Notes: generated by a model not told the origin, from the letters alone. A stretch of DNA of 64,000 nt from Clostridiales bacterium (GCA_017513085.1 JAFWDK010000003.1:48573-112572); one strand, 5' to 3'; positions 38,174 through 47,184 are shown, numbered from the stretch's first letter. A program made the numbers and translations.

Positions 38174-39172
38174 TCATTCGAACTCAGAGATGGAAACATG
38201 CTCTCCTTTCCGGATCCTGTTCCGAAGGGTCATCAGTTCATGATCCTTTTTCTCTGCCAGGAGCAGAACGGCCGCTTCCTGATCATCCCGATGGATGATC
38301 TTATCAATACGGCCATTTCTGATCACGATACGTTTCGGAGACATCAGGGAAAGAATCGGGTCATGGGTCGCGATCAAGACGATCTTATCATTACCTGTCA
38401 GAAGCTCCATCGCCTTTCTTCGATCGATACCTGCATTTTCGATCTCATCGATCAAAACGATCGGCGCACGTGAGAGGTAGGCACAGTCTGCAATCATCAG
38501 CGCACGTGACTGTCCTCCGCTTAAGGCTGTCACCGCGGTATCCCGGGAAAAAGGCTCACCAGCCAGGGAAACAGCTACCTCATACACTTTCTGCACTTTC
38601 CCGGGGATCTCTTCCTTTCTGAGGAAACACTCGGCATGCATGGTAAGAAATTCTTCCACATTCATATCCAGGACGAAATTCATATTCTGCGAAAGCTGAG
38701 CGATCGAACGTCTTCTTTCGCCTGTTTTGAGCCATTCTTCCTTATTTTTTCCGTCAATCAGTATCGTTCTCTGTGTCGGAGTGTCCTTTAGTGCCTGCCA
38801 CTCGATATCTTCCAGGAGGCGGCTCTTTCCGGAGCCGGTTTCACCGACAATGGCGATCATTTCACCTTTTCGGATAGTTATAGGATCGAAGCACTCACTC
38901 GCACCATCTTTCCCAACTCCCGGAATGATCGTGATGGATCCGACACTTCGGATCTCCTCGGAGAGACATTCCGACGCACTTCGGAGATAGGCAGAAAATT
39001 CCTCTTCCACTTCGTTTCGGCTCATCTTTCTCTGCTCGAAAAATGAATCCGGAAGCTCCATCAGGTTTTCAGAAAAGCTCTTTTCCTTATCCCAGATCAC
39101 CTCAAAGTCATCCAGATAGTATGGCAGATAGGGGTAGTCCTTCTCCAGTTGCAAAAGCGGGATCGTCAGCAT
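38174..39172 (-). CDS. Stand-alone ABC-type ATPase with N-terminal extension
   Basis: GETGSGKS, LSGGQSR, LIDEIE, ATHD; no cognate permease of its own. Confidence 0.8.
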   Translation of the reverse strand: MLTIPLLQLEKDYPYLPYYLDDFEVIWDKEKSFSENLMELPDSFFEQRKMSRNEVEEEFSAYLRSASECLSEEIRSVGSITIIPGVGKDGASECFDPITIRKGEMIAIVGETGSGKSRLLEDIEWQALKDTPTQRTILIDGKNKEEWLKTGERRRSIAQLSQNMNFVLDMNVEEFLTMHAECFLRKEEIPGKVQKVYEVAVSLAGEPFSRDTAVTALSGGQSRALMIADCAYLSRAPIVLIDEIENAGIDRRKAMELLTGNDKIVLIATHDPILSLMSPKRIVIRNGRIDKIIHRDDQEAAVLLLAEKKDHELMTLRNRIRKGEHVSISEFE

Positions 39173-39188
39173 TCATGTACCTTCTTTC

Positions 39189-39872
39189 TCAGATCTTGAT
39201 GTGTTTAACGTTTCCGATCTGGTACTCGGTTCCTATCTTTGTTTCACCTAAACAATAGGAACAGAGCGCCATAGGCATCGGAAAACGAAGCGTCTCATTT
39301 TCGATTTCTCTCTCCATAGCCATATTCCGGATCGCCCGTGTGATCTCTGAAATTCCCTGTCCGGTAAGCCCGTTGACAGGAAATATCAGTGCTTTTGGAT
39401 TAGAGGTCTCAACTCTTCGCATGAACACTTCTCTTTCTGCTTGAGAAACGATATCTCCTTTTGTAATAAGTACAATATCTGCCAGTTTCAGGAGAGGACC
39501 GATTTTTCTGGGAGCCCGGATCCCGCTTAACTGATCGATCACACAGACAGCCAGCACATTTTTGATGTAGGGCGAGCATCGGTTACAAAGGCCGGCACTC
39601 TCCGTAAAAAGATAGTCCAGCTCTTCCTTTTTCCCCCAATCATAGACAGTCTGAATATTCGTGATGTAATAGTGATCGGGACAAAGTTCGGAAGAAAGTC
39701 CCTTTGCCGATGGGATCCCGGCCTGACTATAGGTCTTGTCGTCTTCGGTCTGGAGGCAGTCAAACTTACACGCCCCCACTTTACTTCCATCTCTCATAAT
39801 TTCTTTTAAGATCCGCGTCATAACGGTAGTTTTGCCCGTTGCAGGCGGTCCGGCAAAGGTTACCAGCTTCAT
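39189..39872 (-). CDS. HypB/UreG-like (G3E) Cys-rich GTPase
   Basis: GPPATGKT, KFDC, LCPDH, ESAGLCNRC, ITKGD, C-terminal CSYC. Confidence 0.8.
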   Translation of the reverse strand: MKLVTFAGPPATGKTTVMTRILKEIMRDGSKVGACKFDCLQTEDDKTYSQAGIPSAKGLSSELCPDHYYITNIQTVYDWGKKEELDYLFTESAGLCNRCSPYIKNVLAVCVIDQLSGIRAPRKIGPLLKLADIVLITKGDIVSQAEREVFMRRVETSNPKALIFPVNGLTGQGISEITRAIRNMAMEREIENETLRFPMPMALCSYCLGETKIGTEYQIGNVKHIKI

Positions 39873-45125: not shown

Positions 45126-46372
45126 CAGACGATTCCTCCGTATTCATCGATCAGTTTTCGGATATCCGCTTTTTCTTTCATCGCGAACCGCATAGTATCC
45201 ATAAGGATCCTTATTCCCTGATATCCGAGCATTCCTTCATCAGAAGAGATATCTGCAACATATCGCGCATTGCTTAAGTAGGCAGCTTCTTCGCCTACTG
45301 CCAAAGCTATTGTTTCCGTTTCCGAACGGAAAACCGAATCCGGATGATCCCCCTGAATGATCTCGACCTGCGGATACTCGTTAAGGAGGATATCGGCATA
45401 CTTCTGATCGGGTCCCACCACTTCAGAAAGATAGACACGCGTTACACGGAAACCGTATTCCAGAAGTGCTACGGCCAGAGATAGGGGAAATACGGTTGCA
45501 CTGTCAGAAACAAAGACCGGCACATCCGCAACTTCTTCTCTGGCATAATAGATCGCCTGTTCACATAAGGAACGGTCGTCTTTAATCTTTTCAGAAAGAT
45601 CTTCTCCCAAAAAGTCAGACAGATCCTGATACTCTTTAGTGACAGTATCAATATCATAGGATATCGGCATTTCCACGTGTGTAGCGCCGGTTCTTTTCTC
45701 CAGACGTCTCAGCGCATATCTCACAAATGGTTTTATCACTATAGATCTTCCGGAGCGGGACATCTCCTCATACTCTGAAAAAGTACTGCACGAGGAAATC
45801 TGGCGGACCATATGGCCATTTTGATTCAGGACCCGGATCAGCTCGTTATCTTCCGGGATCCCGACGAAGTTTCCCCAGAGCGTTACACCATCATCCGTCT
45901 TCTCCCAATCGGGTAGCACACTTAACATCGCATCAAACGTCGTGACTGCCGGTGGCATCTTGGTGGAAGATGCAATTGGATTCATATGTCCGGCACGGAA
46001 AAGGATATCCGGATATCTTTTCCCGAGGATCGCGGTCACTTTCTCCATATCCGTACCGATAAAATCATCCAGGCAGGAAACATAAATAAAGAGAAGACGG
46101 ATGTCCTTTTCCGTTCTTTCCAGAAGCTCATCCACGCCATCCAGGATCTCCTGATCGTATCCCTCCACGATGTCGCTCTGGTCAATATAAAGATAAGAAA
46201 TACGGTCTTTATAGTGATGCTGGATCGCGCCGAGCGCCCCATGCCGGAAGCACGCTGACGGGCAGACAAACAAAAGATAAGATCCGGGGATAAGTGCAGC
46301 GACACGGATGATTCCCCATCCGTCATGCGCAGGATTGCAGTAACAAAGGTTCGGTTCAAATCGCATGTTCAT
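45125..46372 (-). CDS. Nitrogenase component-1-like protein (first subunit, NifD/E-like)
   Basis: PAHDGWG, VCPSACFRH, DIVEG, VSCLDDFIGTD, GYQG; TGATG coupling at both ends. Confidence 0.78.
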   Translation of the reverse strand: MNMRFEPNLCYCNPAHDGWGIIRVAALIPGSYLLFVCPSACFRHGALGAIQHHYKDRISYLYIDQSDIVEGYDQEILDGVDELLERTEKDIRLLFIYVSCLDDFIGTDMEKVTAILGKRYPDILFRAGHMNPIASSTKMPPAVTTFDAMLSVLPDWEKTDDGVTLWGNFVGIPEDNELIRVLNQNGHMVRQISSCSTFSEYEEMSRSGRSIVIKPFVRYALRRLEKRTGATHVEMPISYDIDTVTKEYQDLSDFLGEDLSEKIKDDRSLCEQAIYYAREEVADVPVFVSDSATVFPLSLAVALLEYGFRVTRVYLSEVVGPDQKYADILLNEYPQVEIIQGDHPDSVFRSETETIALAVGEEAAYLSNARYVADISSDEGMLGYQGIRILMDTMRFAMKEKADIRKLIDEYGGIV

Positions 46373-47184
46373 CACCTCCGAAGCAGATAAATCAATTCTT
46401 CGGTATACGGATCTTTTTGTATGGACGTATCATCGCCATGGCAGAGACTGATTATTCTATCTGCCAATTTTTCATAATCCTTAGCGATCGACGATCGGGG
46501 AAACTTCTCGATAACAGTCTTTCCCTCCTGTTCCGCCGCCTGCACCATCTTACTTCTATGGATATGTGAAATAACCGGAAGGTCGTGTTCTCTGGCAAAG
46601 CGGGTAACAAGATCCTTTTCATTCTCAACAAGCCGCTCATTTAAAATCAGGCCACGTACACGGGCGTATCCGCGCTCTTTGAAATTGTCTACGGCACGGG
46701 AAATATTATCTGCGGCAAAAAGAGCCATCATCTCACCGGAAGTAACGATAAAGACATGTTCCGCATATCCGTCACGGATCGGCATGGCAAAACCGCCACA
46801 GACTACATCGCCGAGAACATCATATAGAACGATATCCGGGGCGTATTTTTCAAAAGCACCGAGCTCTTCCAGTTTCTGGAGAGCCGATATGATACCAAGA
46901 CCAGCACATCCGATACCGGGCGTCGGTCCACCCGATTCTACACAGAGGACACCGTTATATCCATCGTGAACGAGATCAGAAAGCTCGACGTCTTCACCCT
47001 TCTCCTTGATCATTCCGAGGACCGTGCTGATCTTCTCGCCCCCCATCAGGTTTTTAGTAGAGTCCGCTTTCGGATCGCAACCGATCTGCATGACTTTATA
47101 ACTGCGTGAAAGAGCGGCTGCAAGATTCGACGTTGTGGTTGATTTGCCTATTCCGCCTTTACCATAAATAGCTATCTTTAACAA
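46372..47184 (-). CDS. NifH-like Fe protein (nitrogenase-like reductase component)
   Basis: [53 protein letters not shown] start. Confidence 0.93.

Follow-up and report, generated by a model that had tools for sequence, protein, structure and literature searches.

We describe a nine-gene operon in a 64,000-nt stretch of a rumen Clostridia genome (Clostridiales bacterium, GCA_017513085.1; JAFWDK010000003.1:48573-112572; herein referred to as the window) that encodes a divergent nitrogenase-like reductase (a NifH-like protein, H, and two component-1 subunits, D and K) together with a metal-chelate importer (the binding lipoprotein BP2, a permease and an ATPase) and a trio comprising a binding-protein-like protein (SBP6), a GTPase and a soluble ABC ATPase (ABCx). 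The pairing of such a reductase with a metal-chelate importer recurs in hundreds of anaerobe species, and in the window it stands behind an operator of iron-starvation type, GTTAGC-N4-GCTAAC (herein referred to as the box). An initial annotation, made from the sequence alone, had interpreted the operon as an anaerobic system that imports a metal chelate (heme/tetrapyrrole or ferri-siderophore) and reductively opens it or releases the metal, which the trio would then hand on. That interpretation is supported in part: the iron-type operator, the placement of the enzyme outside the known families and its coupling to the importer stand, and only these. We tentatively propose that the enzyme acts reductively on an iron complex brought in by the importer and thereby frees the iron, a reading to which we assign a little less than an even chance.

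Relatives of the operon were collected by a pattern scan with an alignment of the D family across 185,579 species, each represented by one genome. The scan yielded 324 stretches, 308 of which were confirmed as relatives; the best 80 of these 308 were retrieved with 10-kb flanks, and their content was scored by phmmer with the nine window proteins as queries. Among the 65 loci with enough flank, 63 carry a six-gene core (H-D-K-BP2-permease-ATPase) on one strand, the two exceptions being a locus in which the transporter genes lie nearby on the opposite strand (L021) and one in which the contig ends (L052). The initial annotation had named conservation of the gene neighbourhood as a check on its reading, and the core linkage is indeed kept, to a degree that excludes chance as the origin of the cluster. 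Because the coupling to a type II (FecCD) importer is tight and conserved, the enzyme would be expected to act on an imported substance. Carriers include Lachnospiraceae, Oscillospiraceae, Christensenellaceae, Romboutsia, Faecalispora, Anaerobacterium, several Treponema and Synergistaceae/Fretibacterium, among them the cultivable Romboutsia lituseburensis DSM 797, Faecalispora sporosphaeroides DSM 1294 and Anaerobacterium chartisolvens DSM 27016. Occurrence is patchy: of 399 genomes scored in a sample drawn evenly from the class to which the window belongs, 16 (13 of 216 genera) have a D-family gene at E <= 1e-40. Some genomes of this sample (G021, G070, G212, G237, G289 and G343) hold two D-family genes spaced 7-8 kb from each other, the entire system being present there in tandem.

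Genes were assigned with Pfam and NCBIfam models run on the open reading frames (ORFs) of the window, and on these matches H, D and K are members of the nitrogenase superfamily, namely a NifH-type ATPase and two paralogous component-1 subunits. H scores 334 bits to the NifH and CfbC models alike, below both cut-offs, and 207 bits to BchL; its best solved relative is NifH of C. pasteurianum (7e-78). The best curated family for D is BchN (30 bits, 2.3e-7, against a cut-off of 324) and for K it is NifE (50 bits, 1.6e-13, against a cut-off of 505). Overall, D and K reach 30-50 bits against Nif-type models whose cut-offs span 324-1229, with the NifD and NifE models giving at most 50 bits against cut-offs above 480, and the CfbD model (TIGR03282) matches neither subunit at E <= 0.001. 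No curated model reaches its cut-off, in agreement with the initial placement of the enzyme outside the characterised Nif/Vnf/Anf, Mar, Cfb and Bch families. Even a profile built from 17 D sequences reaches NifE and VnfD only at 1e-14, in an alignment that begins past the cysteine region. An AlphaFold model of D (from a 49-row alignment; predicted local distance difference test, pLDDT, 90.9) has the component-1 fold, with Foldseek matches to NifK, NifN, BchN and Mar chains at E-values of 1e-13 to 1e-16 and query-normalised template modelling (TM) scores of 0.60-0.72 to NifK, AnfK, VnfK, NifN, BchN/ChlN and Mar chains. We considered the fold as a guide to the branch of the superfamily and rejected it, since the Nif, Anf, Vnf, NifEN, DPOR and Mar chains among the matches listed have similar TM-scores.

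Conserved residues were judged over 78 H, 77 D, 75 K and 22 GTPase sequences. H shows the full set of Fe-protein features, with an invariant Walker A motif (GKGGIGKS) and two invariant cluster cysteines, C93 and C129. The only conserved cysteines of D are C38, C42 and C101, accompanied by R44, H45 and the motif H130-M-N-P-I, and the only conserved cysteines of K are C40 and C61, invariant like H35 and D36. Across the D sequences, no cysteine is conserved after C101, no histidine after H130 and no equivalent of the FeMo-co ligands (Cys275 and His442); likewise, no Cys/His ligands of an L-cluster are conserved in D or K. The six P-cluster cysteines of nitrogenase, three in D and three in K, are therefore not all kept, judged by the count of conserved cysteines rather than by residue-by-residue equivalence to the Nif positions. 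As predicted from these alignments, the about four or five cysteines of D and K suffice for one bridging [4Fe-4S] cluster and not for a P-cluster plus an M- or L-cluster. Group VI nitrogenase-like proteins, in the accessible part of the source, have a NifH that branches beside Group V and neighbourhoods rich in radical-SAM genes (10.1101/765248). Set against these features, and by scores rather than a tree, H lies nearer to NifH and CfbC than to BchL, and neither radical-SAM nor sulfur families are found among the recurrent flank families (those recurring in at least two related loci).

BP2, the permease and the ATPase match PF01497, PF01032 and PF00005, respectively, and by these matches constitute a type II (BtuCD/FecCD) importer. 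BP2 carries a signal peptide, a lipobox ending at Cys22 and a Ser/Glu/Thr-rich linker; the permease matches BtuC, FecC/D and FhuB models at 1e-59 to 1e-30, and the best NCBIfam matches of the ATPase are heme, corrinoid and Fe-dicitrate ABC ATPases, in both cases below cut-offs. Searched against solved structures, the BP2 family profile finds an unannotated binding protein (4ovk, 6e-83) and HI_1472 (4.6e-37), next three further structural-genomics proteins and then a nickel-binding CeuE-type protein (4e-24). More distant are IsdE (heme, 4e-14), FeuA (1e-11), BtuF (8e-9) and the enterochelin-binding CeuE (1e-5), and the hemin binders HutB and ShuT are reached at 1e-4 to 1e-5. Invariant residues of BP2 include the aromatics W211, W277, W334, Y260 and Y353 as well as H89, M300, K347 and R354, a set that would suit, without proving, a planar or catecholate ligand. 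Two or three BP2 paralogues are present in 11 loci, which hints at several related ligands.

The box before the operon, GTTAGCAGTGGCTAAC, lies at 47239-47254, 55 nt upstream of the H start codon. The initial annotation had pointed to one and the same box before the operon and before feoAB, and it is found at both, the feoA-feoB genes of the window being preceded by GTTAGCATATGCTAAC and a one-mismatch copy (at 18073 and 18149). Counted at no more than one mismatch to GTTAGC-N4-GCTAAC, and with the expectation taken from shuffled sequence, the window holds 15 sites against 0.07 expected (5928, 5959, 9572, 14144, 18073, 18149, 26588, 34185, 35008, 36425, 38011, 47239, 49494, 52477 and 59134), most of them 4-70 nt upstream of gene starts. 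The genome (3.06 Mb) holds 36 sites, 30 of which are intergenic by ORF calls; 19 are exact, and 12 of these 19 fall in the window, making it a box island. Outside the window, the box is found upstream of a second feoB (with a DtxR-like gene adjoining it), of a TetR-CMD-flavodoxin operon and of an HMA-domain/P-type ATPase pair. On another contig (C6:12673-14384, L096), two boxes are followed by genes for a DUF3793 protein, which may function in iron starvation, a short flavodoxin and a DtxR/MntR-family repressor of 126 aa.

The association of the box with H extends well beyond this genome. Among the 73 loci with enough upstream sequence, the box occurs before H (interval -250 to +30 of H) in 32, against a background of 0.01 per 280 nt (45 sites elsewhere in 1.26 Mb). 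Six box sites in other loci lie upstream of DUF3793 genes, and the flanks of related loci contain DUF3793, flavodoxin and DtxR-like genes in four loci each, FeoB in three and an HMA ATPase in two. Genes for flavodoxin and Feo classically respond to iron starvation, and metal repressors usually control their own expression. Because the box precedes feoB, flavodoxin and DtxR-like genes in this genome, and H in 32 of the 73 loci, an iron regulon is supported, and we infer that a DtxR/MntR-like repressor probably pairs with the box; the half-site of the box, GTTAG, is that of the DtxR/IdeR consensus, with a different spacing. Fur-type 7-1-7 boxes, considered as a general alternative operator, were rejected, as they precede H in only three of the 73 loci (L022, Romboutsia; L028, Clostridium lamae; and L031), where they replace the GTTAGC box; the same operon may be under different iron repressors in different lineages. 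Neither riboswitches nor members of any other Rfam family were detected in the window, and seven related loci gave only rRNA and tRNA genes, which argues against corrinoid control.

The claim of an iron-type operator is therefore upheld by the content of the regulon and by recurrence before H. The box is not specific to this operon and feoAB, about ten further units of the window being preceded by it. These targets include four heterodimeric ABC_membrane+ABC_tran pairs, often behind TetR or AraC genes, a Trep_Strep/CbiQ/ATPase ECF-like transporter, a MacB-type FtsX/ABC pair and two methyltransferases; exporter-fold ABC pairs are able to import siderophores (IrtAB, YbtPQ). Downstream of the operon lies an enolase gene with its own promoter (TTGACA-17-TATAAA, 37915-38090), and since the box at 38011-38026 is 9 nt downstream of the -10 element, enolase looks repressible by the same regulator; its longest ORF (466 aa) starts too early, the Pfam match beginning at residue 40. 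Two boxes (35008-35023 and 36425-36440) flank a genuine xylose isomerase gene (TIGR02630, 661 bits), one 41 nt upstream of the start and the other just past the stop, before a 95-aa ORF without a family.

A second regulatory input may be encoded beside some of these operons. A Crp/Fnr homologue is present in the flank of 31 of the 80 loci, within 200 nt of H in 28 of those 31, and its alignment contains no conserved Cys/His residues that would point to an Fe-S or heme sensor. This regulator probably does not bind the box, and we rejected it in that role: across loci, presence of the Crp/Fnr gene is largely independent of presence of the box, and a different palindrome, GTTGC-N4-GCAAC, tracks the regulator gene. 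This palindrome, often in the form TGTTGCATATGCAACA, occurs exactly before H in 16 of the 73 loci (L001-L004, L007-L013, L015, L019, L021, L022 and L028) against 0.0007 per 280 nt elsewhere, and all 16 carry the Crp/Fnr gene, so that it is the probable site of the adjacent regulator. The Romboutsia and Clostridium lamae loci (L022 and L028) combine the Fur-type box with the GTTGC palindrome.

The remaining three genes form an optional module. GTPase and ABCx are both present in 17 of the 46 loci with at least 5 kb upstream and at least 8 kb downstream, 11 of the 17 with a clear SBP6; one further flank family, in seven loci, is a weaker SBP_bac_6-like protein (its single scored representative gave 8e-8). 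SBP6 has no signal peptide and no solved relative detectable by sequence, and a search of 5.8 billion proteins returned only 34 relatives. Its AlphaFold2 model (pLDDT 92.5) is placed by Foldseek nearest the ferric/ferrous binders FbpA, FutA and IdiA, with AfuA, TbpA and PotD next and almost as good (TM 0.6-0.69, 12-16% identity), and the fold was rejected as a guide to the ligand, since binders of iron, sugar phosphate, thiamine and polyamine all match. The GTPase scores 2.3e-9 to HypB and 9.9e-6 to UreG (NCBIfam) and 3.8e-7 to a solved UreG; because it falls below the HypB and UreG equivalog cut-offs, we assign it to the G3E superfamily only. Its invariant residues are C39, C64-P-D-H67, C96-x2-C99, C110 and C204-x2-C207, and clusters that resemble it are common in methanogens, one related Atlas cluster carrying the Fe-S domain PF04060 (score 0.93). 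ABCx is a plain nucleotide-binding domain with a conserved N-terminal extension of ~97 aa and has neither a membrane domain nor a membrane partner. Two apparent associations were discarded. A 552-aa protein (P0064) from a single public 2.4-kb contig, in which D residues 1 to ~350 are joined to the C-terminal half of SBP6, was rejected as a D-SBP6 fusion because five genes are skipped, and is probably an assembly chimera or deletion variant rather than evidence of contact between D and SBP6. An 'ABC exporter' flank family assembled by single linkage over 33 loci proved to be a mixture, with proteins of at least 500 aa in only nine loci.

Within the window, ORF calls and Pfam and NCBIfam matches confirm the nine closely packed genes of one strand that had been annotated initially (table 1). 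The nine ORFs run from 47184 down to 38174 on the minus strand, with overlaps of 4 nt (H/D), 1 nt (D/K), 4 nt (permease/ATPase) and 1 nt (SBP6/GTPase) and gaps of 76, 21 and 16 nt, none exceeding 76 nt. Homologues of SBP6 start at a position equivalent to 40798, which gives a protein of 308 aa, shorter than the longest ORF.

Table 1. Genes and regulatory sites of the nitrogenase-like/importer operon (window positions).
Feature	Position	Strand	Basis
H, NifH-like ATP-dependent Fe protein, 270 aa	46372..47184	-	Fer4_NifH 1.4e-93
D, short nitrogenase component-1 subunit, 416 aa	45125..46375	-	Oxidored_nitro 7.4e-22
K, short nitrogenase component-1 subunit, 379 aa	43986..45125	-	Oxidored_nitro 4.2e-20
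BP2, FecB/BtuF-type (class III) substrate-binding lipoprotein, 418 aa	42653..43909	-	Peripla_BP_2 8.6e-19
FecCD/BtuC-type permease, 332 aa	41633..42631	-	FecCD 3.8e-87
Importer ABC ATPase, 291 aa	40761..41636	-	ABC_tran 4.2e-31
SBP6, signal-less, cytoplasmic FbpA-fold protein, 316 aa (longest ORF)	39872..40822	-	SBP_bac_6 1.4e-33
G3E-family GTPase, UreG/HypB-like, 227 aa	39189..39872	-	cobW domain (PF02492) 5.3e-9
ABCx, soluble ABC ATPase, 332 aa	38174..39172	-	ABC_tran 2.2e-16, residues 99-243
Operator GTTAGC-N4-GCTAAC, probable DtxR/MntR-family site	47239..47254	.	Recurrence before H and regulon content
Second palindrome GTTGC-N4-GCAAC, probable Crp/Fnr-type regulator site	47289..47302	.	Tracks regulator gene across loci
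Divergent Crp/Fnr-family regulator, 229 aa (longest ORF)	47290..47979	+	HTH_Crp_2 2.5e-10, cNMP_binding 4.9e-6

Five sheep-gut metatranscriptome libraries (from three studies) contain small shares of the sampled words (0.06-0.18), and contigs from four of them, at 95-99% identity, cover pieces of all nine genes and span the junctions ABCx/GTPase, GTPase/SBP6, SBP6/ATPase, ATPase/permease, permease/BP2 and D/H. These are contigs of a close relative rather than reads, carrying no level, strand or transcript ends, and their uncovered parts are uninformative; they lend weak support to expression of the operon and are silent on its regulation.

The initial annotation had also noted that nifB, nifE, nifN, bch and cfb genes are missing from the window. 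A whole-genome search with PF00148 matches only D and K on the window's contig, and the single nifB-like gene of the genome lies on another contig, outside the window, which bears out the nif part of that claim; no bch or cfb gene is among the Pfam matches of the 52 window ORFs, where no search by name was made. Two further nitrogenase-like clusters lie on contig C5. The first (C5:243906-250654, L105) is a second, paralogous nitrogenase-like/Fec operon, in the order TM1266-like regulator, permease, ATPase, H, D, K and BP2, whose regulator belongs to the TM1266 family ('iron-only hydrogenase system') and which is followed by a gene for a 401-aa protein without a family. Its D, K and BP2 are 28%, 31% and 46% identical to those of the window, so that the pairing of reductase and importer exists in at least two subfamilies, presumably with two substrates. 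The second (C5:18671-28927, L106) is a Mar-like Group IV cluster (cysK, nifB-like, nifX-like, nifH at 464 bits, cysK/M, D and K, together with a further NifE-like gene), the D of which reaches 169 bits against nitrogenase alpha models and matches CfbD at 1.2e-14; its content suggests an organosulfur reductase in this rumen Clostridia genome.

Our proposal, an iron-starvation system of strict anaerobes in which import is followed by reduction, derives from the near-obligate linkage to the importer, the metal-chelate type of that importer, the iron-starvation control and a cluster complement like that of the tetrapyrrole branch. BP2 would capture an iron-containing complex outside the cell, and the FecCD-type permease and ATPase would bring it in. 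The NifH-like dimer, hydrolysing ATP, would then deliver low-potential electrons, probably drawn from flavodoxins of the same regulon, into the D/K heterocomplex, which is predicted to hold one bridging [4Fe-4S] cluster and no P- or M/L-type cluster and which would reduce the imported complex and free its iron. The electrons could reduce the macrocycle if the complex is heme or a different iron tetrapyrrole, much as DPOR, COR and CfbCD reduce their own tetrapyrroles, or a single electron could reduce a ferric chelate of very low potential, for example a catecholate. In loci that encode them, SBP6 with its FbpA fold, the Cys/His-rich UreG-like GTPase and ABCx would receive the freed metal. In iron-replete cells, transcription would be blocked at the box, probably by a short DtxR/MntR-family repressor, and the Crp/Fnr-type regulator with its own palindrome would provide a second regulatory input. 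Gene content, conserved linkage, the operator with its regulon and the reduced set of cysteines are observed, whereas we infer what the substrate, reaction and electron donor are, what the trio does and which protein pairs with which operator. A heme or iron tetrapyrrole substrate fits, by analogy, the chemistry of DPOR, COR and CfbCD; a ferric catecholate would account both for the ATP requirement and for the presence of multiple binding proteins; and the nearest relatives of BP2 suggest a smaller complex. The ferric-binder fold of SBP6 and the C-P-D-H motif of the UreG-like GTPase count for metal handling.

The proposed job, oxygen-free release of iron from an imported chelate by an enzyme encoded beside the matching importer and controlled by iron starvation, is also that of unrelated proteins, namely the radical-SAM enzymes ChuW/HutW, the HmuS dechelatase of Bacteroidota and the siderophore reductases FhuF, ViuB and the reductase domain of IrtAB; we know of none among them that uses an ATP-driven Fe-protein cycle, and none of their homologues is recurrent in the flanks of related loci. 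On balance doubtful, in our judgement, is the most specific form of the proposal, in which an ATP-driven Fe-protein cycle would free iron from imported heme or ferric catecholate in gut, rumen and oral anaerobes, by an oxygen-free route distinct from ChuW and HmuS and as the first catabolic, nutrient-scavenging role of the tetrapyrrole-type branch.

Several observations weigh against release of iron from an imported complex. The box was not found before H in 41 of the 73 loci at the threshold used, it is missing from the paralogous operon (none lies on contig C5) and it also precedes genes with no evident role in iron (enolase, methyltransferases and ABC exporter-type pairs). The DtxR-like proteins of the genome score best to MntR models, below cut-offs, and the sensed metal is therefore read from the regulon alone. 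The nearest solved relatives of BP2 do not point to iron, HI_1472 being the molybdate/tungstate binder MolA, and the heme and catecholate binders are more distant. No heme, siderophore or tetrapyrrole genes are recurrent in the flanks. The RNA-library contigs may hold DNA carry-over and leave a single transcript unproven. Moreover, an Fe-S-rich, ATP-hungry enzyme is costly under iron shortage, and ordinary reductases serve most siderophores.

The main alternative is that the system serves metal-cofactor or Fe-S assembly, with D/K as a NifEN-like scaffold, the importer supplying a metal species (iron, iron-sulfur or Mo/Ni), H driving reductive coupling or insertion of clusters, and the Cys-rich GTPase and ABCx delivering the product; we regard this as unlikely. 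NifEN works with NifH, has one [4Fe-4S] cluster that sits between the subunits on few cysteine ligands, and is the best sequence match among solved structures, NifE chains being reached at 1.5e-14 (D profile) and 8.6e-5 (K). HI_1472 and a nickel-binding protein are among the closest relatives of BP2, the GTPase contains other invariant cysteines besides its two CxxC motifs, and a related Atlas cluster carries PF04060. A coupling of metal transport to cofactor assembly has also been proposed, in the accessible part of the paper, by Dos Santos et al. (2012, PMC3464626). However, the match to NifEN is only 1e-14 even with a profile, and no nifB, nifX or nitrogenase stands beside the cluster; the trio is missing from most loci (GTPase and ABCx in 17 of 46), no target enzyme or further maturase is recurrent in the flanks, the D/K ligands are too few for a complex cluster, and a dedicated importer, sometimes with two or three binding proteins, fits the processing of a substrate better.

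Improbable, in our view, is the salvage or tailoring of a tetrapyrrole cofactor by a bacterial counterpart of CfbCD, DPOR or Group VI, in which reduction of the imported molecule would give a cofactor instead of iron, with the GTPase serving nickel or cobalt. DPOR (BchLNB/ChlLNB), COR and CfbCD are like the present system in combining an ATP-driven NifH-like reductase with a component-1 that has only a bridging [4Fe-4S] (predicted here), their D fold is alike (TM 0.64-0.67 to BchN/ChlN) and their substrate is a large metal chelate. H is equally close to CfbC and NifH, the best curated match of D is BchN, weak as it is (2.3e-7), and UreG and HypB are nickel chaperones; nitrogenase-like enzymes with a simple [4Fe-4S], such as DPOR and CfbCD, reduce tetrapyrroles according to the accessible text of a recent review (PMC13474568). 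The BchN, BchB and CfbD models are missed or far below cut-offs, TIGR03282 passing over D and K yet matching the Mar-like D of the same genome at 1.2e-14; CfbCD has a single homomeric CfbD in a cfbABCDE context, whereas here there are two different subunits and no nearby cfb genes. No pigment or F430 genes lie near the operon, the flank families that recur contain no cfb, bch, cbi or radical-SAM genes, the window and seven loci gave no riboswitch for cobalamin or anything else, and the regulon is of the iron-starvation type. Unlike in DPOR, COR and CfbCD, an importer and an iron-starvation operator are coupled to the enzyme, which suggests breakdown or release of metal over biosynthesis.

A Mar/Isr-type organosulfur reductase or a nitrogenase is very improbable: membership of the superfamily, the similarity of H to MarH (9fmg_D, 9e-72) as to NifH and the Mar-like cluster elsewhere in the genome would speak for one, yet D and K stay at 30-50 bits against cut-offs of 324-1229 where that cluster's own D reaches 169 bits, no Cys/His is conserved for an L- or M-cluster, no nifB or sulfur-metabolism gene is recurrent beside the cluster and the transporter is of the metal-chelate type. 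The MarBHDK and isethionate reductases (Groups IV-C and IV-F) carry P-like and L-like clusters made by a NifB homologue and are encoded among sulfur genes, as described in the accessible part of the review (PMC13474568), and the present cluster has neither their ligands, nor a nifB neighbour, nor sulfur genes.

Both the superfamily and its co-location with ABC transporters are already known, the latter in print since 2012. Dos Santos et al. (2012, BMC Genomics 13:162; PMC3464626), in the parts of the article accessible to us, describe, in Clostridia and a methanogen, genes for NifH-like and NifE/N-like proteins located next to ABC transporter genes; the proteins have no FeMo-co ligands, the D/E-like subunit conserves two cysteines and the K/N-like subunit one, and there are two linked copies in the human-gut Firmicutes Coprococcus and Dorea. 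Likened by description, these clades agree with the present system in gene pairing, reduced cysteines and tandem copies; that account, as far as accessible, is without function, regulation or a census of linkage, and the iron operator, the trio and the two subfamilies come from the present analysis. The accessible text of the 2026 Chemical Reviews article (PMC13474568) distinguishes Groups IV-A to F, V and VI, with function known only for Nfa, CfbCD, MAR, ISR and DPOR/COR, and makes no mention of a system linked to an iron-chelate transporter. A nif-like operon of Desulfitobacterium hafniense with an AraC regulator is, in the accessible part of its source, induced by exposure to oxygen (PMC3306737); such induction would fit an iron or oxidative-stress regulon, should that operon be of the present type. 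Neither a function nor iron regulation of the cluster was found in the searchable full-text literature, most subscription journals lying outside its reach; PMC11484787, PMC9431491, PMC3547915 (in which 'Nfld' stands for Newfoundland) and a 2026 Mar preprint gave nothing on this cluster. New relative to that literature are the six-gene core with its near-obligate linkage, the occurrence of this core in three phyla, the iron operator together with its regulon, the site of the second regulator and the optional metallochaperone-like module.

The same review, in its accessible text, names the functions of uncharacterised nitrogenase-like systems as a top challenge, for which gene context has so far been of little help (PMC13474568). 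In the present case, gene context is unusually informative: the importer is conserved, the regulon of the iron-starvation operator can be read and some carriers can be cultivated. The system is a widespread, uncharacterised variant of the nitrogenase-like enzymes that comes with an unusually testable hypothesis. Should cofactor assembly prove true, the operon would represent an import-coupled metallocluster pathway. If release of iron is true, it would explain how chelate-bound iron is acquired without oxygen in many Clostridia, treponemes and Synergistetes, and it would add a new class of reaction to the nitrogenase superfamily.

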